Below are positions 4,926 to 63,904 of a stretch of 64,000 bases of DNA, in pieces. The first letter of the stretch is position 1. Each line of letters begins with the position of its first letter. The stretch is from Bacilli bacterium. GTDB lineage: Bacteria; Bacillota_I; Bacilli_A; RF39; UBA660. The stretch is taken from contig DAOPMC010000001.1 of assembly GCA_035392025.1 (NCBI GenBank), positions 68 through 64,067 on the forward strand, given 5' to 3'. The position numbers and the translations under genes were made by a program. Below the pieces are notes generated by a model. The model searched no databases. It was not told where the DNA came from and worked only from the letters and a program-made list of their open reading frames with translations.

Positions 4926-5038
4926 AAAAAGTAATCACCTCACATTTATTAATAATTTAATTATAAATTATTAATAATAATAAGTCAACAAGGTGTAAAT
5001 GAATAATTATACAAAATAAAAAAGACCTATACAAGCGT

Positions 5039-5812
5039 CTATTTACTTCCTACTTTATGAAACTCCAATCGTAATTTATCTGCTACTGTTACTATAAATT
5101 CTGAGTTAGTTGGCTTTGCTTTATCAATATCAACACTATGGCCAAATATCTCTTCCATTAGATCCCAATTACCGCGATTCCAACTAACCTCTATTGCATG
5201 TCTAATAGCTCTTTCAACTCTAGAAACAGTTGTATCAAATTTGGTAGCAATTTCAGGATATAATTCCTTAGTTATTCCACCAACAACTTCAGGCCTACTA
5301 TAAATAATTGATATGCCTTCCCGTATATATTGATATCCTTTAATGTGCGATGGTAATCCTAACTCATGTAATATCTTTGTAATTGATATCTGCAAATTGT
5401 TATGATAAAGATTGATAGATTTGTTATCATAATTTTTATCATCTACTGCCTCTAGAATTCTTCTTTCAAGTTCTGCAAGTTCAAACGGTTTTAGTAGAAA
5501 ATAATCTACTCCCATCTCCGAAACCTTTCTAATAATATCTGGTGAATTATAAGAAGTCAGTACAATAACTTTCTTATCAATGTTAAACCGCTTCATTTGC
5601 TCCAATACATACATACCATCTCTTTTAGGCATAACCAAATCTAAAATAATAACATCATAGTCATCTACCCTAGATTTAATCATTTCAAAACCCTCTTCCC
5701 CATCTTTAGCATCTAATACGACCTCAATGCTTTTGTGACTGCTAAAATATTCTTTAACCATTGTTACTAGTTGAATATTGTCATCAATCATCAGTACATT
5801 CGCATTTTTCAT
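5039..5812 (-). CDS. spo0A: Stage 0 sporulation master regulator Spo0A
   Basis: Receiver domain (IDDN...D...K) plus the Spo0A-specific C-terminal domain ([42 protein letters not shown]). The ORF-track start at 5944 is read-through; the likely start ATG at 5812-5810 is preceded by GGGAGAG. Confidence 0.9.
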
Positions 5813-6016
5813 ATTCTCTCCCTTCAGTACTGCCGTATAATCATATTCTACTACACATTTAAAAAAGAGTATAGAGCAAAAAAACACTAATTTTGTCGAA
5901 CAAATTAATTTATACTTTGTTATCTCTAAATTTTTGTATTTCACATTTAAATAAATTATCTTTTATGGTTACGTTTTCTGTCGTTATTTCATTTGCTTTA
6001 GTACATGGATATTCAC

Positions 6017-40721: not shown

Positions 40722-43133
40722 TTAATAATTTAAGTATAAATTAGTGCTGCCATCAAAATAATCTAAATTTGCATCGCACCAAGTCTGTGTAGGCTCATTA
40801 CCAGCACCAAATGTTTTCGTTAAGTCTACTAGCAGAGCCCCATCGGCGTATGCTAGAAAACTTCCTTCCATCCCGTCGGACGCTGCCGATTGCCACCTGC
40901 CATGTGTCATTTCAAAATAAGTCATATCGCTATAATCATCAGTATCAACAACCACACTCTTTTTGACCCAACCACTACTTAATTCTGTTGATGTTAGCGA
41001 TGTAGGAAGATTCTGTGTGCTTGCCGTCCTTACTTTGAATTCCAGCGTATACGTGCCAGTTGTATTTGTAACTAATTTGTGATCTATTTTATAATAATAA
41101 ATATGCCCCGCCTCAAATGTATATGTTTGGTAGATATATGAAGAATATAAATTACTAGCCATATTCGTACAAATAGAATTACTTCCAAATCTTGAATATG
41201 AAGAAGACGTTGCTGTGTAACTTCCAACAATACTCCATCCTGTCGTACTGTCTTCAAAGCTACCATTTGTAACTATATTAGCAACCGTATATTGGATTCC
41301 ATCATCCCAGGCAGTCACTCTCTGCCCAAGAGATGTTTCGGGTCCCTCAGTGTGTATTACAGTTACATATGTACTTCCATTACTTGAAACACTTGTTACA
41401 TTATTATAATACGTTCTGCCATCTGCCCAATAATGCCATACCGCTATTTCATCTAAATTGTATGAAGATCCTAAATCGATAACTACACATTGATTACCCG
41501 TTGTGCCCTTTGCATAATTTGCACTTGTTATATCACCGTCTGTTATATTTGATATTGGATATGTTGCATCGTTTGTTATCCCTGTTGCTGTTAGTCCTTT
41601 TGCTATATTTTCTCCTTGATATATTGCCTGAAATTCTACCCACTGATTATATGTACTAGTGCTGTTACCGTTTATACAATTCTTAATATATCTAACATTA
41701 TTTAACCTTGTGTTTAATCTAGTTGGGGATGTTGTTCCTACATATGTGATTGTTGCTTTGCCATTACCAGTATTTGATTCTGAAACCATCTCAGTATCTA
41801 TAAAATATTTATTACTATAATGAATGATATCATCCGATGCCACAGTTGATGTTGAGGAAGTTATTGCATTTGCTCCTGCATATCCACTTATGAATGACGA
41901 TCCGCCAGCTGCTGAACCTACCACTGAACTTGATACATTTCCAGAAGCGCCTCCATAATATCCACCGCCTCCGCCAGCAATATACATCCATTCAGCTGTA
42001 AAGGTTGGATAATATCCACCTATTCCAAACGAACCATTATATCCAGTACCATCAGCGATAACACCTCCTAGAGTTTGAGTACCTCCGCCTGATGGCGTCA
42101 AGGTAGTTGAACCAAGTTGGGTAACGTTTCCAGAACCGCCGTAAAGGCCCCCAGCGATACCACCATTATTGAAATAAGTATTTCCATCGGATATATTGGC
42201 TCCTCCTCCTCCTCCAGCCACCATTATTCTTGAATTAAGCCCTAATTCTGAATTCCACGCTAATTGATCTGACGTTGGAGTAGTTACCCCAAAATATCTT
42301 ATATCTGTCGCTCCACCACCATTTGAATTAGTCGAAACAGTCGCTCCACTTCTAACTGCTAGTGTCCCTCTTCCGCCACCATTAAAACTTAGCGCATCTT
42401 TCGCACCAGTATAATTTTCGCCAATATATATGTATAATATTTCACCAGCATCTAGAAAAATTTTACCATTGGTATATCCACCCAGACCTCCAGTTTTTGT
42501 TAAATCACCATATGTGCTATTTCCACCTTGTGCTCCCCATGCTTCTATATTATAATATCCAGTTTTTGGCACTATAAATTGATTATAACTTCCAGTATAT
42601 GCATATTCTATATTTGAACTACTTGTTGATACGGCATAAGTATTAGCTCCTAGACTTGGAAATGAATAATCTGTTGGCAATGCTTCAACGCTAAATGTAA
42701 CCGTCGTTGATGAATCTCCCGTATTTTTTAATATTATTACTACTTGTTTTTCAGTTGTTGCCCCAATATTTCCTGATGCTATATCAAAATTAGTTAGATA
42801 TTTAGCTGTTACTGTGCCTGTTGTTGTATATATAGTCCTATATTTTAATTCCCATGGTGCATTGTTTTCAACATCTAGGCTTAAAACAATAGTTTCTCCT
42901 GCTGCAATCGTAAGACCGGTTGTTGCAGATGAAATATTTGATGTTAACGTTATTGGATTAGAAGAAATTAAGATTGCAACAGCAGCGTTTTTTTGTGTCT
43001 GCACCTCTAAAATAGCATAAGAAAAACTTGAAATTATTATTAATAATCCCAATATTATTGTCATATACATATATAAACTTTTAACTTCTTTGGTTAAAAA
43101 TTTGGCAATTTTTTTCTTCATATTTATAGCCAC
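40722..43133 (-). CDS. Large secreted/surface protein P2: TasA-like N-terminal module plus glycine-rich domain plus discoidin (F5/8 type C)-like plus CBM4/9-like domains
   Basis: N-terminal basic segment and TM (SipW-cognate-like); then a TasA-like block (ITLTSNISS...LTIAAGETIVLSLDVEN...); the 190-620 region is rich in GGGG/GGxGG runs; then a W..F.....QCVVIDLG..Y.LDEIAVWHYW segment (discoidin-like); then NGSFEDS..GW (CBM_4_9-like start). Confidence 0.55.
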   Translation of the reverse strand: MAINMKKKIAKFLTKEVKSLYMYMTIILGLLIIISSFSYAILEVQTQKNAAVAILISSNPITLTSNISSATTGLTIAAGETIVLSLDVENNAPWELKYRTIYTTTGTVTAKYLTNFDIASGNIGATTEKQVVIILKNTGDSSTTVTFSVEALPTDYSFPSLGANTYAVSTSSSNIEYAYTGSYNQFIVPKTGYYNIEAWGAQGGNSTYGDLTKTGGLGGYTNGKIFLDAGEILYIYIGENYTGAKDALSFNGGGRGTLAVRSGATVSTNSNGGGATDIRYFGVTTPTSDQLAWNSELGLNSRIMVAGGGGGANISDGNTYFNNGGIAGGLYGGSGNVTQLGSTTLTPSGGGTQTLGGVIADGTGYNGSFGIGGYYPTFTAEWMYIAGGGGGYYGGASGNVSSSVVGSAAGGSSFISGYAGANAITSSTSTVASDDIIHYSNKYFIDTEMVSESNTGNGKATITYVGTTSPTRLNTRLNNVRYIKNCINGNSTSTYNQWVEFQAIYQGENIAKGLTATGITNDATYPISNITDGDITSANYAKGTTGNQCVVIDLGSSYNLDEIAVWHYWADGRTYYNNVTSVSSNGSTYVTVIHTEGPETSLGQRVTAWDDGIQYTVANIVTNGSFEDSTTGWSIVGSYTATSSSYSRFGSNSICTNMASNLYSSYIYQTYTFEAGHIYYYKIDHKLVTNTTGTYTLEFKVRTASTQNLPTSLTSTELSSGWVKKSVVVDTDDYSDMTYFEMTHGRWQSAASDGMEGSFLAYADGALLVDLTKTFGAGNEPTQTWCDANLDYFDGSTNLYLNY

Positions 43134-45602: not shown

Positions 45603-46424
45603 TTATTTAAACCCTAGTTGAGTTCTATACTCGACTGGGGTTTTATAATTTAATGCAAAACTTGGGCGATAATTGTTATTATCCCAAACAATATTATCAA
45701 TAAATTCCTGAACTGTGTTATAATTATTCTTGTCAAAATCAATATGCATTTCTTTCTTCATCCAGCCATTTTTTGATTCGATGACTGGATTATCAGTAGG
45801 AGTTCCAGCTCGCGACATAGACCTGGTTATTTTATAAGAATTAAATATATTGTTGAATGACACTGAGGAATATACGGCTCCTTGATCTGTGTGGACAATA
45901 GTCTCAAGGTTTTCATATCCTCTTTTTATTTTACTATCTAGCATATTATTTAATGATTTCTTATGATTTAAAATGCCGTTTCCATGCATTGATTCTCTTA
46001 CGTCATAACCAACAATTTCATTATTAAAAACATCCAAATAAAAAGTCCAATCGTATGGTTTACCCTTAAAACCTATTGTTGTTGTATCAGATACAATTAT
46101 TTCGAATGGCCTTGACGTAGACCAATTACCTAAAATTATATTCTTAAATTTAATGGATTCATCTCCTGCAGGTTTATATTTATAATGTTTAGCTTTTGAT
46201 TTTATTTTTAATATTTTACATAATTTATGAACTAAATTGTTTGATACATACCATCCTGTTTCCCTTCTTATTATTGCATTAATTCTTTTATAACCATAAC
46301 TAGGTTTCCTCTTATGAATTTCTTTTATTAATTCTCCTAAATCTTTTCTGTTAATTTCATAATTGTTTAATATATCTTTATTCTTCATCCATTTATAATA
46401 TCCTGATCTTGAAACTTTTAACAT
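45603..46424 (-). CDS. IS3-family transposase OrfB (integrase catalytic core); the frame continues upstream to the frameshift site at about 46540
   Basis: rve-domain motifs (HTDQGAVYSS; D...E spacing). Upstream in the same frame reads ...EVTQIKYEIIELLSKEYNIKSLCIMLKVSRSGYYKWM, the typical OrfAB junction. Confidence 0.85.
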   Translation of the reverse strand: MLKVSRSGYYKWMKNKDILNNYEINRKDLGELIKEIHKRKPSYGYKRINAIIRRETGWYVSNNLVHKLCKILKIKSKAKHYKYKPAGDESIKFKNIILGNWSTSRPFEIIVSDTTTIGFKGKPYDWTFYLDVFNNEIVGYDVRESMHGNGILNHKKSLNNMLDSKIKRGYENLETIVHTDQGAVYSSVSFNNIFNSYKITRSMSRAGTPTDNPVIESKNGWMKKEMHIDFDKNNYNTVQEFIDNIVWDNNNYRPSFALNYKTPVEYRTQLGFK

Positions 46425-46489
46425 TATACATAAAGATTTAATATTATACTCTTTACTTAGTAATTCAATTATTTCATACTTTATCTGTG

Positions 46490-46837
46490 TTACTTCATGA
46501 ATTTTACAATTGAACCATCTCCTTTCGTTAGGTATCCTTTTTTTAATAATTCATTTTCGATTCTTAATTTCATATTTTCATATTCTAATTGTTCTTCCTT
46601 CGTTAACTCTTTTTTTCTAGAATATTTCATCAAAGGATTACCAGGCTTAGTTTTATTTTTTAAGCCTTCAATGCCAGATTCATTATACTTTTTTACCCAA
46701 TTGAAAATTAATCCAATATTAATGCCTGTTTCTCTAGAAACCTGTGATTGACTCTTTTCATTATTAATAATTGGTTTAATTATTTCATACTTTTCGTTTT
46801 CCGTTCTAATCATTTGTTTTTGACCTTTTTTAGCCAT
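46490..46837 (-). CDS. IS3-family transposase OrfA (HTH plus leucine zipper)
   Basis: 115 aa; N-terminal HTH (SQVSRETGIN), C-terminal heptad Leu repeats; ends just past the AAAAAAAG slippery site. Confidence 0.85.
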   Translation of the reverse strand: MAKKGQKQMIRTENEKYEIIKPIINNEKSQSQVSRETGINIGLIFNWVKKYNESGIEGLKNKTKPGNPLMKYSRKKELTKEEQLEYENMKLRIENELLKKGYLTKGDGSIVKFMK

Positions 46838-56788: not shown

Positions 56789-58366
56789 TTACATCTCAGT
56801 TACAACATATGGATCAGCACTAGTTCCAGTACCTGTCACTTTAACTGTTGGTGCTAAATTTATTACAGGATATACATCCATAGAAGTGCTAGTAGATGTG
56901 CTGATAACTTCACCAATACTATTTGTCGATAACATATATGAAACACTGTTACTATATCCATAGGCAGACATGGTAAAATATGATGAAGTTTGTCTTAATA
57001 TATTAAATTTATTGATAACTCCAAGTTTTAATCCTGCGTATATTAGTTCATCACTTGATAACAATCCTATTTTTACATCATATAGATATGAATTAGAACA
57101 GGCATATGATGGAGAACCACTATTTGCCCTAGTATATGCTGAAGATGTATCATTACAGAAACTAGCTGATGATACAAATTTATCATAGTTTGATAAAGTA
57201 GAATCATACCATGATTCTAAACTCGTTTTAATCGCTGAATCCTCTGTTCCACTTCCACCATCATAAGTATACCCCAAATACGTAGATGCATTTGATAGAG
57301 CGTTATATGTACTTGCAGTTCCTGTTGCTGTTGTTTTAACTAATCTTATAGTATCATCTTCATTAACCCTAACAATTCGCCAATTTGAACCTGCAAATAA
57401 AACATAATTATTTATAATGTTTCCTCGATAAAAATATGTATCCTTACTATCTTGCCCAGTTACTTTATATACCCCGTTTTCCACAGTATATAATGATTGT
57501 GCACCATTATTATTATAATAACTCGTACATGTCGTTAAATTATAGTTTGCATTGTTTGAATCACAATATTGGCAATAATCACTGACATAATAATTACCCA
57601 TTGTGTCACACACTTTAGTTTGATAGTCTGAAACTGATGTTGGGGCATTATCATAATATGTTGAACTTGCAGCAGCTTTGGTAGTTGTAATTGCAGTTGT
57701 AATAACATTTTCTTCATCTTCTCCAATTATCAAATCTTTTAATAATAATGGTGTCTCCTGAGAAGAAGATACTATTAACTTTTTATGAAAATGTCTTCCT
57801 ACTATGCTACTTGGTGCATCTGATTTTATCCAAGTATTTAGTGAATATGTAACAGATGCTCCTACATTTAATGATACTCTTAATATTTGTCCTCCTGTAG
57901 TTAGTTCCATAGGTTCATAAGTAATTGAGTTTGTCTCATCTATTAACTGATATCTAACATTATTATTATCAAGCAGATTAGAATTACATCCACAAGTCGT
58001 AATTGCATCCGTATCGTTTTCTAAAGTTAAAGTTACGATTGCTTTTACATTGCCACTATTTGTTACTCTAAATTTATATGGTGTTTGTAATATTCCTTCC
58101 GCATCACTTTTAGGAAGTGCATTGGTAAGTGATATTGTGCCGCCTAGACCAGTTGCTGTATCATCAAAAGTAACACTAAGAGAACCAACAGTTACCGTAT
58201 TATGCCCAGTTCCTTCATCTAAATCAGTAAATATGGCAAAACTAGAACCCGCAATTAAAAATACTAACACAAAAATTGATATGAAACTTATAATTGCTTC
58301 CTTACCATATTTTTGTATTAATCTTTCTTTTTTTAATTTTAAGTATCCTAGTCTTTCTTTTTCCAT
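56789..58366 (-). CDS. TasA/camelysin-like secreted protein, paralog P3 (525 aa, extended C-terminal region)
   Basis: Basic N-terminus plus TM, then AGSSFAIFTDLDEGTGHNTVTVGSLSVTF...ISLTNALPKSD...YKFRVTNSGNVKAIVTL, which aligns with the SipW-cognate signal region and N-terminal domain of B. subtilis TasA (AFND...TFASGTLDL...NLSNLKPGD...FQFENNGSLAIK). Confidence 0.65.
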   Translation of the reverse strand: MEKERLGYLKLKKERLIQKYGKEAIISFISIFVLVFLIAGSSFAIFTDLDEGTGHNTVTVGSLSVTFDDTATGLGGTISLTNALPKSDAEGILQTPYKFRVTNSGNVKAIVTLTLENDTDAITTCGCNSNLLDNNNVRYQLIDETNSITYEPMELTTGGQILRVSLNVGASVTYSLNTWIKSDAPSSIVGRHFHKKLIVSSSQETPLLLKDLIIGEDEENVITTAITTTKAAASSTYYDNAPTSVSDYQTKVCDTMGNYYVSDYCQYCDSNNANYNLTTCTSYYNNNGAQSLYTVENGVYKVTGQDSKDTYFYRGNIINNYVLFAGSNWRIVRVNEDDTIRLVKTTATGTASTYNALSNASTYLGYTYDGGSGTEDSAIKTSLESWYDSTLSNYDKFVSSASFCNDTSSAYTRANSGSPSYACSNSYLYDVKIGLLSSDELIYAGLKLGVINKFNILRQTSSYFTMSAYGYSNSVSYMLSTNSIGEVISTSTSTSMDVYPVINLAPTVKVTGTGTSADPYVVTEM

Positions 58367-60415: not shown

Positions 60416-60940
60416 TTATGCATTAACAGTTTCTTCAGTTTCTATCTTTTCTACAACTTCTTCTTTAGGCAATTCTTCAACTACTTCTATAACTTTCTCT
60501 TTTACTACTTTTTTTTCTCTAAAGATTCTATAATTTATTACAAGCACAAGATCTGATATAAACAATAAATAAATAAGTAATTTAATAGTACCTAAGTTAT
60601 CAGATAAATAAGATGGACTATAATTAATACCATACTTGTAATATAGCATCATATTAGTATCAAATTTAGCACGATAACCAATATATACTATTGCACCAAG
60701 TACAATTACTGCTGTTATGTTATAGAAGAAATTACGATTAATTATTTTTTGGCGTCCCATAAGATTAATAATATACATAATTAGTAAAAGTACAAATGGT
60801 AACATAATAGGGATTGAATCTGTTACTGATTTATCAAGTCTTGTATAAGTCAGCAGTAATCCATAAAATATTAAACCCATAGCTACAAGTAATAAAAGTA
60901 TTCTTAAAACTACAAATAAGCCATTTATTAACTGCTTCAT
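60416..60940 (-). CDS. Hypothetical polytopic membrane protein (last gene of the SipW locus)
   Basis: 174 aa, about 4 TM segments, acidic/Lys-rich C-terminal tail; 4-nt overlap with the upstream gene. Confidence 0.4.
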   Translation of the reverse strand: MKQLINGLFVVLRILLLLVAMGLIFYGLLLTYTRLDKSVTDSIPIMLPFVLLLIMYIINLMGRQKIINRNFFYNITAVIVLGAIVYIGYRAKFDTNMMLYYKYGINYSPSYLSDNLGTIKLLIYLLFISDLVLVINYRIFREKKVVKEKVIEVVEELPKEEVVEKIETEETVNA

Positions 60941-61668
60941 TGTGTCACCTCCCCAGTTGTTGCTGTTGCTCTTACTTCTTCTAAATAATCAACAATTTCA
61001 TCAAGTATATTTGCTGATTGTTCATAATTATCTAAAAGTCTTTCATAAATAACTTTTGTTGGATTATATATGGTATTTCTAGTATCAACTGTAGTATAGC
61101 TGTAGGAACTATTTCCCATTAGCCAATTTTCTAACACTGTATTACTAGCTGTTATTTGATAAATAACCGGTTGATGCATTGCTAGCGTGCTAACCATTTT
61201 TTCATCTTCATATAAGTCAGATGATGCCGTTGTTCTTATTACTCCCATTTGATAAGCTAAACATTCTCCTCTAAATGAATTGAAATCTTTATAATAAGTG
61301 TAATTAGTAAAAGCATCTGCTGTTTCGATAGGTGTCTTGTAAAGTTCCATTTTTTTAAATTCATCAGTACATATTTTTAGTCCTAATCTAATTTTTTCAT
61401 AATATATAGCTTTATTATTAACACCAAATACAGTAAAACTAATTGTTGAAAGTCTATTATCAGCATCATCTATTTTTTTTACAATGTTTTCTCTTTTTGT
61501 TTTTCCTTCGTCATTAATATAATAATCATATTGCAGTTCTTGTGCATGATAGACATTAGCAAATATTAAATACCCTGCCATAAGCAAAGAGATAATTAAA
61601 ATTGCACCAACTAATAAATTAATTAATTCCCCAAAAGTCTTCTTCAGCATCTTCTTCCCTCTTTTCAA
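60937..61668 (-). CDS. Hypothetical membrane-anchored protein with a large extracytoplasmic domain (SipW-locus associated)
   Basis: 243 aa; basic N-terminus and a single TM, then a Tyr/Thr/Asn-rich domain; the start overlaps the sipW 3' end, so the true start may be an internal Met. Confidence 0.4.
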   Translation of the reverse strand: MKRGKKMLKKTFGELINLLVGAILIISLLMAGYLIFANVYHAQELQYDYYINDEGKTKRENIVKKIDDADNRLSTISFTVFGVNNKAIYYEKIRLGLKICTDEFKKMELYKTPIETADAFTNYTYYKDFNSFRGECLAYQMGVIRTTASSDLYEDEKMVSTLAMHQPVIYQITASNTVLENWLMGNSSYSYTTVDTRNTIYNPTKVIYERLLDNYEQSANILDEIVDYLEEVRATATTGEVTQ

Positions 61669-62341
61669 TTCTTTTTTCTTCTATTATAACTTTTTTCTCA
61701 GGTTCTTTATGTTCTACTTCTACAGGAGTGGTAATTGTTTTAACATTATCTATATTAGTAGTTTCTTGTAGATTTCTTTTTCTTTCTAGTAATTTCTTTC
61801 TCCTGGTAAATATTTTTACGAAGTCAAATATAATTATACCCATACACGGAACTACTATCGCAACTAGCCAACCAAATTTGGTCGCTAAGAATTGTTGAAT
61901 ATATCCTATCTTTGGTATTTTTAAAATAACTTTACCCATTATATTTTTAGTAAGTACTGCTGGAGAATCTTCGGTATTATTAGCATCACCTTTTGTAACA
62001 TAAGCTGTCTCTCCATCACGAAGTGTTATTTTGACAATTCTGTGAGTAACAGTAATACCTTGTGTATATGTTCCATCCGATATATATGTTACAACATCAC
62101 CTATTGCATATACATCATCTTTCGTTTTAAAAGTTATTATCATATCCCCAGCTTTAATCTTAGGGGACATGCTTTGGGTTAGGATAACATACATATTAAA
62201 AGGAACTTTATCTAATTTATCTTGTTTTTGCATTACTTTGATATATACTACATACGCTGCAAGAAGTACTATTAAGATAAGCAAAAGCGTAAGAATAGTT
62301 TTAGATATTATTCTTAAAATTAATGCTATTTTTTTCTTCAT
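61619..62341 (-). CDS. sipW: Signal peptidase I, SipW / Sec11-type (Ser-His, S26B)
   Basis: N-terminal TM, ER/archaeal-type SPase boxes: TQSMSP (catalytic Ser), GDVVTY, THRIV (catalytic His), KGDANNTEDS; C-terminal TM plus charged tail. Confidence 0.7.
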   Translation of the reverse strand: MKKKIALILRIISKTILTLLLILIVLLAAYVVYIKVMQKQDKLDKVPFNMYVILTQSMSPKIKAGDMIITFKTKDDVYAIGDVVTYISDGTYTQGITVTHRIVKITLRDGETAYVTKGDANNTEDSPAVLTKNIMGKVILKIPKIGYIQQFLATKFGWLVAIVVPCMGIIIFDFVKIFTRRKKLLERKRNLQETTNIDNVKTITTPVEVEHKEPEKKVIIEEKRIEKREEDAEEDFWGIN

Positions 62342-62353
62342 AATTTCACCCTT

Positions 62354-63127
62354 TTATTCTACATATCCTATAACATTTACAATACATTTAAAAGTTCTAG
62401 TTGTATTATCTAATTCATAATTATTGGCAACCCAAAGTCTAAGACGATATGAATTTGTTTGAGTTGTGGTAAGTTCTTTTGTATATAATTTTTTAGCATT
62501 TGAGGCATGAGTGCTATTATCTAAATTTGTATATGTTGGAATTACTCCCGTAAAACCAGATGCTGCTGCTCCATTTTCCTCTAAATAAACTTTAATATAT
62601 GCTGGATCTAATTTTAAACCACTTATTAATGCTTCTGTAAGATATATTTCATATGTTACTTTTTTAACTTTAGGATTATTATTTAAGTTAAAAGTAATTT
62701 GAAAATCAAAGTATTCGTTTGTCCCAGATAACGCTTTACCAAGTTCATCAGTCATAGGATAAGCATTTACTATATCAATAGCTGAATCAGCTTCGCTATA
62801 AGAAAATAGTACCATTCCAACATCAATATTGTTAGAGCCTCCCGTTGAACCACCATTATTAACATAATCTGTTATAGAAAAGGTGATAAATGATGCTCCT
62901 GCAATTAATGCTACTAACATAACAATTAGTAACCAAATGGGTACTATTCCTCTATTTGGTTTTATATATAACTGTTGTCCTACTACTATATTAGTATCTT
63001 CAAGTTCATTAATTTTTATGATAGACTTTTCAGTTACATCATATTTATCTGCAATAGATGCTAAAGTATCATTTTCTTTTACTATATATATAATATATCT
63101 TAAATTGTCATTCTTATCTTTTACCAT
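62354..63127 (-). CDS. LysM-domain pro-region plus TasA/camelysin-like secreted protein, paralog P4
   Basis: Residues about 12-56 form a LysM motif (DTLASIADKY.V....I...N.L....I..GQ.L.IP). A TM follows with ALIAGASFITFSITD, nearly identical to the P3 cleavage region LIAGSSFAIFTDLDE. C-terminal SYRLRLWVANNYELD motif shared with P5 and P1. Confidence 0.6.
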   Translation of the reverse strand: MVKDKNDNLRYIIYIVKENDTLASIADKYDVTEKSIIKINELEDTNIVVGQQLYIKPNRGIVPIWLLIVMLVALIAGASFITFSITDYVNNGGSTGGSNNIDVGMVLFSYSEADSAIDIVNAYPMTDELGKALSGTNEYFDFQITFNLNNNPKVKKVTYEIYLTEALISGLKLDPAYIKVYLEENGAAASGFTGVIPTYTNLDNSTHASNAKKLYTKELTTTQTNSYRLRLWVANNYELDNTTRTFKCIVNVIGYVE

Positions 63128-63194
63128 AAAATACTAGCATCCTCTCTTACACTATCTCTATTATTGATAATAACATAAATTTTAATAAAAATAA

Positions 63195-63223
63195 ATAAAA
63201 AAGACTTATTTTTCATAAGTCTA
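63195..63223 (-). terminator. Rho-independent terminator between P5 and P4
   Basis: AGACTTAT-TTTTCA-ATAAGTCT hairpin followed on the minus strand by a T-run. Confidence 0.5.
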
Positions 63224-63238
63224 ATCATATTAAATAAA

Positions 63239-63904
63239 TTATGCTGTTGCTTGAACATTTACTTTGAATGTATATGTTGCTGCTGTTGTTGTATTTGAAA
63301 TTGTATCATTTGATGTAGTATTATCATTTGTTGTTAAATCATATTCATCATCTACCCAAAATTGAATACGGAATGTTTCATTTGCTGCTGTTGTAATTTG
63401 CCTTGAAGCAAAATAGTTAGTTGCTGACATATAACTACCAAGTACTTTTGGTGCTAATGTCCATGTTCCTGATGCAGCAAGGCACGCTGCCTCTGTGTCT
63501 CCGGTTCCTGAGCAACTTCCATATCCTTCAACTGCTTTACCATTAGCATCTACTTCAACAAAGTTAATTTTAGTTTCATCTAAATCACCTGTTTGAGATA
63601 CTTCAGTAAAGTATAGTACATATGTAAAAGTAACTCCAGATGCAAGTGTTGGTACTACAGTAAATGTATAATAATTAGTGTTAGTACTGTGGCCTTTATC
63701 ATATGTCATTGGATATTGATTTGTTAAAGTTGCTACAGTTTCATCACTAAATGCTATAGATAACTGTGAAGTAGAGATAGATGATGTTCTTGTACCAGTA
63801 GCACTAAAGCTATACATTGCATAAGATACTCCAACTACTGCAATAACTAGTACTAAAACAGCTACAATAGAAAGTATTATTTGCTTTGAATTATTTTTTT
63901 CCAT
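63239..63904 (-). CDS. TasA/camelysin-like secreted protein, paralog P5 (221 aa, TasA-sized)
   Basis: Basic N-terminus, TM, YAMYSFSATGTRTSSISTSQLSIAF... block; C-terminal FRIQFWVDDEYDL motif. Size and position (first gene, own terminator) resemble a major fibre subunit like tasA. Confidence 0.6.
   Translation of the reverse strand: MEKNNSKQIILSIVAVLVLVIAVVGVSYAMYSFSATGTRTSSISTSQLSIAFSDETVATLTNQYPMTYDKGHSTNTNYYTFTVVPTLASGVTFTYVLYFTEVSQTGDLDETKINFVEVDANGKAVEGYGSCSGTGDTEAACLAASGTWTLAPKVLGSYMSATNYFASRQITTAANETFRIQFWVDDEYDLTTNDNTTSNDTISNTTTAATYTFKVNVQATA

Follow-up and report, generated by a model that had tools for sequence, protein, structure and literature searches.

LysM is usually extracytoplasmic, and it is regarded almost by default as a module that binds the wall from outside the cell. 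The few known LysM domains that act intracellularly, those of SpoVID and SipL, have brought to light unexpected checkpoints at which wall precursors are sensed from within. The LysM of SpoVID binds lipid II in the cytosol (PMC11513918), and SipL is reported to bind SpoIVA via its LysM region, on which SipL function depends (PMC6436350). TasA/SipW-type systems are represented by TapA-SipW-TasA of Bacillus subtilis, BsaA/SipW of Clostridium perfringens (PMC7395162), and the archaeal bundling pilin AbpA (PMC9245690). Here, we analyzed a 64,000-nucleotide stretch of the genome of a Bacilli bacterium (assembly GCA_035392025.1, contig DAOPMC010000001.1, positions 68 to 64,067, forward strand; G+C content, 29%), which we refer to as the window. 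Intracellular LysM domains and SipW-linked secreted β-sandwich proteins are already known separately; the protein we call P4, encoded in the window directly 5′ of a SipW-like signal peptidase gene, carries a LysM domain ahead of its single membrane segment and a β-sandwich domain behind it. To our knowledge, no TasA-family protein has a signal sequence preceded by a folded domain in the cytoplasm, and no bacterial signal peptide has a recognized folded domain, such as a LysM, as its n-region. All the sequences compared were from uncultured gut and rumen Bacilli.

The Pfam LysM model (PF01476) matched residues 14 to 56 of P4 over all of its 43 positions (1 to 43) and, at 51.8 bits (E = 7.7e-14), far exceeded its gathering score of 20.9. 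The LysM-like motif described at the N-terminus in an initial annotation was thereby borne out, and an insignificant profile score, which that annotation had considered as one way for its reading to fail, was excluded. The domain is acidic (pI 4.5) and has the residues of the LysM core and ligand loop ((G/N)DT, IN.L, and VGQ.L.I). A search of 5.8 billion proteins with full-length P4 returned five relatives besides P4 itself, of which four (P0002 to P0005, 43 to 64% identity) retain the LysM while the extension of the fifth, P0006, is acidic and no LysM, and a metagenome scan with a 6-sequence alignment as the query added two further LysM-bearing orthologs, at L008 and L009 (41% identity). The comparison of orthologs that had been suggested together with the motif thus found the N-terminal LysM in every ortholog recovered (P0002 to P0005 and those at L008 and L009, 41 to 64% identity to P4). 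D20, T21, I39, N40, L42, V49, G50, L53, and I55 were invariant in five orthologs. The LysM portion was of low confidence in both of our AlphaFold models, the alignments of which contained few LysM-bearing sequences, so the LysM call rests on the profile match rather than on structure.

In codon alignments of the orthologs, the pN/pS ratio was 0.17 to 0.37 for the LysM compared with 0.54 to 0.65 for the exported C-terminal domain, and the synonymous sites of the LysM were near saturation (pS, 0.73 to 0.92). These ratios indicate that purifying selection is stronger on the LysM than on the exported domain. An in-frame stop lies only 3 codons 5′ of the annotated ATG of P4 (6 codons in the L002 ortholog and 1 in the L009 ortholog); therefore, the LysM is at the extreme N-terminus with no preceding signal peptide, a candidate that we rejected because the upstream stop leaves no room for it. 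Taken together, the conservation, the pN/pS ratios, and the start codon evidence argue that the LysM is translated and under selection and is no chance motif.

The hydropathy profile of P4 has a single peak (19-residue Kyte-Doolittle mean of up to 2.6), as the initial annotation had proposed when it placed one membrane segment with the LIAGASF region after the LysM. We accordingly rejected a second membrane segment that would place both domains outside, and with only one such segment, the LysM and the C-terminal domain must be on opposite sides of the membrane. The segment is flanked by K56 and R59 on its N-terminal side and by D87 on its C-terminal side, and positive charges precede it in every ortholog (KPNR, KRSN, KKSK, or KKKK). 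The N-terminal tail of P4 has 9 Lys/Arg residues in total, and 13 hydrophilic residues precede the LysM. Which of the two domains is exported was indicated by the wider family, in which the C-terminal domain follows ordinary signal peptides: among 154 family sequences (the 150 best hits of a profile search plus earlier relatives), the hydrophobic segment begins within the first 20 residues in 126, and it ends in [ST][FYW]A, a typical signal peptidase I site, in 105 of the 132 canonical members. From the flanking charges and the short signal peptides of these relatives, the LysM is almost certainly cytoplasmic, and an N-in/C-out topology, one of the options raised initially, is the best-supported reading.

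Among curated families, the P4 LysM scored highest with SpoVID (TIGR02907, 38 bits), followed by YneA (25.8 bits) and MltD (23.7 bits), and the SafA model matched three of the P4 orthologs. The SpoVID match covers the LysM segment alone and stays far below the full-length cutoff (38 versus 169.85 bits), so we rejected membership of P4 in that family; a Pfam search found no SipL/SPOCS domain (PF12673) in P4. A scan of 185,579 species-representative genomes used a narrow peptide pattern, and hence provides no ranking of all LysM domains; its only LysM matches came from two SipL proteins of clostridia (PF12673 plus LysM), whose C-terminal LysM domains are 52% identical to that of P4. By these matches, the P4 LysM resembles the intracellular LysM domains of the sporulation proteins SpoVID and SipL. 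The window itself carries the sporulation genes yabG, yabP, yabQ, and spoVG.

The domain order of P4 is rare. A profile of the LysM plus the membrane region, built from 5 sequences, retrieved 99 LysM proteins, none of which had the membrane segment after the LysM except P0155, which is a truncated piece of the ortholog at L008; 15 of the 99 have a hydrophobic segment, which always precedes the LysM. No described bacterial precedent for the order was found among these 99 relatives or in a narrow literature search. The closest LysM matches were small multi-LysM proteins without a signal peptide, such as P0184 from a Bacilli metagenome-assembled genome (MAG), which has YIVKENDTL in common with P4. 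P0184, P0189, P0193, and similar proteins of Bacilli MAGs are about 149 aa long with three LysM repeats and no signal peptide. They are the nearest LysM relatives outside the family of P4, and the recruited domain may have come from such a protein.

The exported domain of P4 belongs to a large family that is covered by no Pfam or NCBIfam model; this holds for P4 and for 61 relatives. When 1.84 billion proteins were searched with a C-terminal profile, 2,799 cluster representatives matched at an E value of ≤1e-3, and P4 thus draws attention to a family of about 2,800 sequence clusters with a conserved operon and no family model. An AlphaFold model based on the 61-sequence alignment was a confident β-sandwich (pLDDT of >90 for residues ~120 to 257, mean of 82.5), with the pLDDT falling to about 50 in the linker at residues 91 to 100. 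Its structural neighbors in Foldseek were weak and generic, the TasA-like archaeal bundling pilin 7ueg (E = 7e-3) among them. A weak top hit of the first model (6 sequences, pLDDT of 63) to the spore appendage protein Ena3A was not reproduced by the better model and was discarded. Members of the wider family reach 1,561 aa.

We also considered the known families of similar architecture. When P4 was aligned by hhalign with B. subtilis TasA, the sequence of which was checked against 8aur and 5of1, the similarity extended over the signal peptide and the first strands only (E = 1.2e-3, probability of 20%). No hit to TasA/camelysin (Pfam Peptidase_M73) was found in P4 or the 61 relatives, and the NCBIfam TasA model (NF046066) matched 2 of the 61 relatives (E = 0.011) and not P4. 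With no match of P4 to a family model, its membership in the TasA/camelysin family was rejected; the likeness in fold is weak. In a profile search of the PDB sequences, archaeal pilins were hit marginally (6nav, E = 0.0035), by way of the hydrophobic helix. Type IV pilin membership was considered improbable, and the adjacent peptidase is of type I rather than a prepilin peptidase.

The LysM is one version of a feature that is more widely conserved at this position. The family members closest to P4 have acidic N-terminal extensions of 30 to 45 aa before the membrane segment, and ten of these (P0008, P0012, P0013, P0015, P0019, P0021, P0022, P0032, P0033, and P0112) have in common the motif [IV]ADxVADEIL, for which no known family was matched. 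We traced P0013 and P0008 to their contigs, where each gene directly precedes that of the peptidase and the locus is again tatD...ksgA-yabG-veg-spoVG-yabP; since they share the exact gene position of P4, they are its positional orthologs. In all the related loci examined, the gene just 5′ of the peptidase has a cytoplasmic N-terminal extension. The conserved oddity is therefore the cytoplasmic extension before the peptidase, of which the LysM is the version of one clade, and the LysM has replaced the usual ADxVADEIL-type extension in one small clade of uncultured low-GC gut/rumen Bacilli. The linker between the membrane segment and the β-sandwich is hypervariable: that of P0012 (residues ~65 to 165) has calcium-binding-looking CDxNxDGxC repeats, those of P0032 and P0112 have long acidic/Pro-Glu stretches, and the L009 gene (positions 5001 to 5858) encodes a (Gly-Thr)n run in a linker of about 50 aa made up of Gly, Thr, and Asn.

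The gene 3′ of P4 encodes a signal peptidase I of the archaeal/endoplasmic reticulum (ER) type, which scored 96.3 bits with TIGR02228 (cutoff, 51.85), similar to its orthologous neighbors in other loci (97.8 to 110.3 bits). With 98.1 bits against a cutoff of 190, it did not reach the Bacillus SipW equivalog model NF046067, and by these scores it is SipW-like but not a strict SipW equivalog. The peptidase gene lies directly 3′ of the P4-type gene in all seven loci compared (the window, L001, L002, L005, L009, L011, and L012). The order of the genes around it is tatD, a gene for a 3D-domain protein, two to three paralogs with short signal sequences, P4, the peptidase gene, two membrane protein genes, ksgA, yabG, and veg, followed in some loci by a Gly-rich family member and then by spoVG and yabP. 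This order recurs in L001/L004, L002, L009, L011, and L012/L013.

Our best overall explanation, to which we assign a probability of roughly 60% with its mechanism included, is that P4 is a genuine specialized member of the exported β-sandwich family. It would be made as an N-in/C-out precursor, with the acidic LysM staying in the cytoplasm, residues 60 to 84 spanning the membrane, and the flexible Gly/Asn linker and the β-sandwich lying outside the cell. The cytoplasmic LysM would hold or position this precursor at a particular membrane site by binding either lipid-II-type wall precursors in the inner leaflet, as in SpoVID, or a protein partner, as in SipL. The neighboring peptidase would then cut P4 after AGAS79 or TFS84, and the released ectodomain may serve as the minor, initiating or anchoring subunit for paralogous major subunits in a SipW-like, TasA-like assembly system. 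Of these steps, the ligand of the LysM and the role in a fiber are suggested most tentatively. Because the LysM occupies a position at which the relatives always keep some cytoplasmic extension, the arrangement suggests that the export, processing, or placement of P4 is controlled from the cytoplasm; we know of no such control of subunit export or processing in TasA/SipW-type matrix or fiber systems.

The cleavage step is slightly favored by the features of the membrane segment and its gene neighbor. The segment of P4 ends with two candidate signal peptidase sites, AGAS79|F and TFS84|I, and a small-x-small site is found in every ortholog of the LysM clade (AGAS|F, SGTS|Y, and TFA|I or TFS|I). 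The hhalign comparison places the segment on the signal peptide and the cleavage region of TasA, and a cut at S79 would leave an h-region of about 16 residues, similar to that of TasA. The initial annotation had called P4 a SipW-type substrate. The adjoining archaeal/ER-type peptidase agrees with this, but the peptidase is below the SipW cutoff, and the model of SipW-dependent signal peptides (TIGR04088) had no hit in P4 at an E value of ≤1; 3 of 61 family members matched it weakly (best E = 0.017).

Several observations weigh against cleavage and would fit a protein that is never cut. Ile81 occupies the canonical −1 Ala position in P4, and N-extended proteins keep to the [ST][FYW]A motif less regularly (11 of 20) than the canonical members (105 of 132). 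The purifying selection on the N-terminal extension would be unexpected for a discarded leader, and the linker behind the membrane, 18 residues long in some proteins and more than 100 in others, varies as a stalk would. The hydrophobic stretch, moreover, is 25 residues long and was modeled as one continuous helix from residue 64 to 92. P4 would then be a permanent type II membrane protein with a cytoplasmic LysM, a transmembrane helix, a wall-spanning stalk, and an outer β-sandwich, and through it the structure that the cleaved paralogs build would be anchored to the cell and connected with a ligand in the cytoplasm. The persistence of small-x-small sites throughout the LysM clade, the translational adjacency to a dedicated peptidase in all loci, and the TasA-like h-region that a cut at S79 would give speak against such an uncleaved P4, and we rate it as possible, with the odds against it.

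A more specific role for the cytoplasmic domain, which we consider unlikely, is that of a targeting or docking module for the dedicated peptidase, either via lipid II in the inner leaflet or via the peptidase tail. The peptidase ends in an invariant acidic run plus [DE]FWGI[ND] wherever P4 bears a LysM, namely in four lineages (the window, L001/L004, L002, and L008/L009), whereas this motif is absent from the peptidases of the three non-LysM loci (L005, L011, and L012). The remainder of the cytoplasmic tail, which is about 50 aa long, is not conserved. The co-occurrence of DFWGI[ND] and the LysM could reflect a docking pair, or mere shared ancestry. If docking were true, the cell would control from within where or when an initiator subunit is processed and released, and the remnant of 79 to 84 aa, consisting of the LysM and the transmembrane segment, might persist as a functional membrane microprotein. 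P4 would then have the first bacterial signal peptide with a folded ligand-binding domain as its n-region.

An inverted topology, another of the options raised initially, would place the LysM outside on the peptidoglycan and the C-terminal domain in the cytoplasm, as in FimV/HubP. LysM is normally extracytoplasmic, and FimV/HubP do have a LysM before a single transmembrane segment, with the LysM exported through a preceding signal peptide and the C-terminus inside. That arrangement requires an N-terminal signal peptide, for which the 13 hydrophilic residues of P4 and the stop 3 codons upstream offer no candidate. The 9 Lys/Arg residues of the N-terminal tail and the positive charges on the N-terminal side in all orthologs also disagree with it, as does the position of the C-terminal domain, which follows an ordinary signal peptide in over 100 relatives, the adjacent paralog among them. 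As P4 has a single membrane segment and 126 of the 154 relatives have a signal peptide that is short and ordinary, this topology is very unlikely.

An artifact, with the true start further downstream and the LysM no more than a pseudogene remnant, a leader that is never translated, or a motif arisen by chance, has in its favor a rather long Shine-Dalgarno spacing (12 to 13 nt) and the clearly overextended start of one database ortholog (P0003) but is contradicted by the E value of the LysM match (7.7e-14), by the intact LysM in five independent orthologs with saturated synonymous sites and low pN/pS, and by the only available downstream start, and is already refuted as far as sequence analysis reaches. 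That start, Met70, which had been named in the initial annotation as a possible true start, is the sole other in-frame ATG, GTG, or TTG among the first 90 codons; it falls within the hydrophobic segment and has no Shine-Dalgarno element, and we rejected it for its position inside the membrane segment. The spacing in P4 is among the longest that are usual, and purine-rich elements also precede the start codons of the orthologs.

Table 1. Coordinates of P4, its parts, and its neighbors (positions in the window unless a locus is named)
Feature	Position	Strand	Description and basis
P4 coding sequence	62354..63127	-	257 aa plus stop; list of open reading frames (ORFs)
Shine-Dalgarno-like purine-rich element AGAGAGGA	63140..63147	-	12 to 13 nt before the P4 ATG; read from the sequence
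LysM domain, residues 14 to 56	62960..63088	-	Predicted cytoplasmic; Pfam PF01476
Hydrophobic segment (signal anchor), residues ~60 to 84 (IVPIWLLIVMLVALIAGASFITFS)	62876..62950	-	Contains LIAGASFITFS; hydropathy, flanking charges
Gly/Asn-rich linker, residues 85 to 103	62819..62875	-	Length variable between orthologs; alignments
Exported β-sandwich domain, residues 104 to 257	62357..62818	-	Uncharacterized family
Archaeal/ER-type (SipW-like) signal peptidase I	61619..62341	-	240 aa; start 13 nt after P4; TIGR02228
DFWGIN motif	61622..61639	-	C-terminus of the cytoplasmic tail of the peptidase; confined to LysM-bearing lineages
Paralog with a short ordinary signal peptide (VGVSYA|MY)	63239..63904	-	221 aa; BLASTP, 28% identity to the P4 C-terminal domain, E = 2e-6
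Weak terminator-like hairpin (GACUUAU-GAAAA-AUAAGUC) plus U-run	63186..63221	-	Between the 221-aa gene and P4; RNA fold
Protein with one N-terminal membrane segment	60937..61668	-	243 aa; syntenic homologs in L001, L005, and L009
Polytopic membrane protein	60416..60940	-	174 aa; syntenic homologs in L001, L005, and L009
Protein with a P4-like signal anchor plus first strands (LIAGSSFAIFTD) and a C-terminal extension	56789..58366	-	525 aa; BLASTP to P4 residues 51 to 130, E = 7e-5
[IV]ADxVADEIL-subfamily genes at the P4 position	L011 1612-2286; L012 4372-5040		

The other genes of the locus are listed with P4 in Table 1. The 221-aa paralog, which has orthologs in L001 and L009, is probably the major subunit. 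The AT-rich hairpin between its gene and P4 was missed by a consensus scan for promoters and terminators, which was uninformative at the 29% G+C of this region, and the region as a whole was not significant compared with shuffled sequences (z = −1.2); such a hairpin might suit a major subunit that is strongly expressed, with read-through beyond it attenuated. The 243-aa and 174-aa membrane proteins, for which no Pfam or NCBIfam match was found, are conserved 3′ of the peptidase gene in every locus and are candidate assembly factors. The L001 ortholog of the 525-aa protein has 549 aa with a glycine-rich PF12810 domain. An 803-aa protein (40722..43133, minus strand) begins with a similar signal anchor and, like the 525-aa protein, has Gly-rich or other extensions; it showed no significant match to P4. 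Further along the window, two adjoining ORFs of 115 aa and 273 aa (45603..46837, minus strand), between a membrane protein gene and a clpC-like gene, resemble orfA/orfB of an insertion-sequence transposase.

One record of the P4 locus had peculiarities of annotation. This record, of L004/L001 (CAZNQV010000002.1, GCA_964575655.1), is titled "uncultured Muribaculaceae bacterium" yet has the Bacillota genes yabG, spoVG, and yabP together with the P4 locus and is probably a mislabeled or misbinned MAG. The annotation of P0003, the P4 ortholog of this locus, places the start codon some 26 codons upstream of where it should be.

Compared with the described systems, P4 has likenesses to several of them, each with a difference in arrangement. 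Long or extended signal peptides, such as the viral stable signal peptides and the extended signal peptide region (ESPR) of autotransporters, have, like P4, a long n-region before a cleavable h/c region, and their leaders may function before or after cleavage; those extensions are, however, short peptides, or eukaryotic or viral cases. FimV/HubP and the animal proteins LysMD3/LysMD4 have a LysM followed by a single transmembrane segment as P4 does, but they are linked neither to a signal peptidase nor to a secreted β-sandwich. LysMD3 is called a type II membrane protein even though its LysM is described as extracellular (PMC8344708), descriptions that disagree on its topology. YneA, the SOS division inhibitor of B. 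subtilis and the second-best curated match (25.8 bits), is, like P4, small with one transmembrane segment and one LysM, but it is the mirror image of P4, with the transmembrane segment first and the LysM outside (PMC13396833).

The locus as a whole is best likened in its working to TapA-SipW-TasA of B. subtilis, although P4 is not filed in the TasA family, and it differs from that system in having two additional conserved membrane proteins and a peptidase that scores below the SipW equivalog cutoff. For the LysM itself, the closest likeness is to SpoVID, SipL, and SafA, which also have an acidic LysM acting in a cytoplasm, that of the mother cell. The LysM is C-terminal in SpoVID and SipL and N-terminal in SafA, and all three are soluble non-membrane proteins, unlike P4. 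Compared with SpoVID and SipL, P4 is without SPOCS and has its LysM fused straight to a signal anchor and an exported domain.

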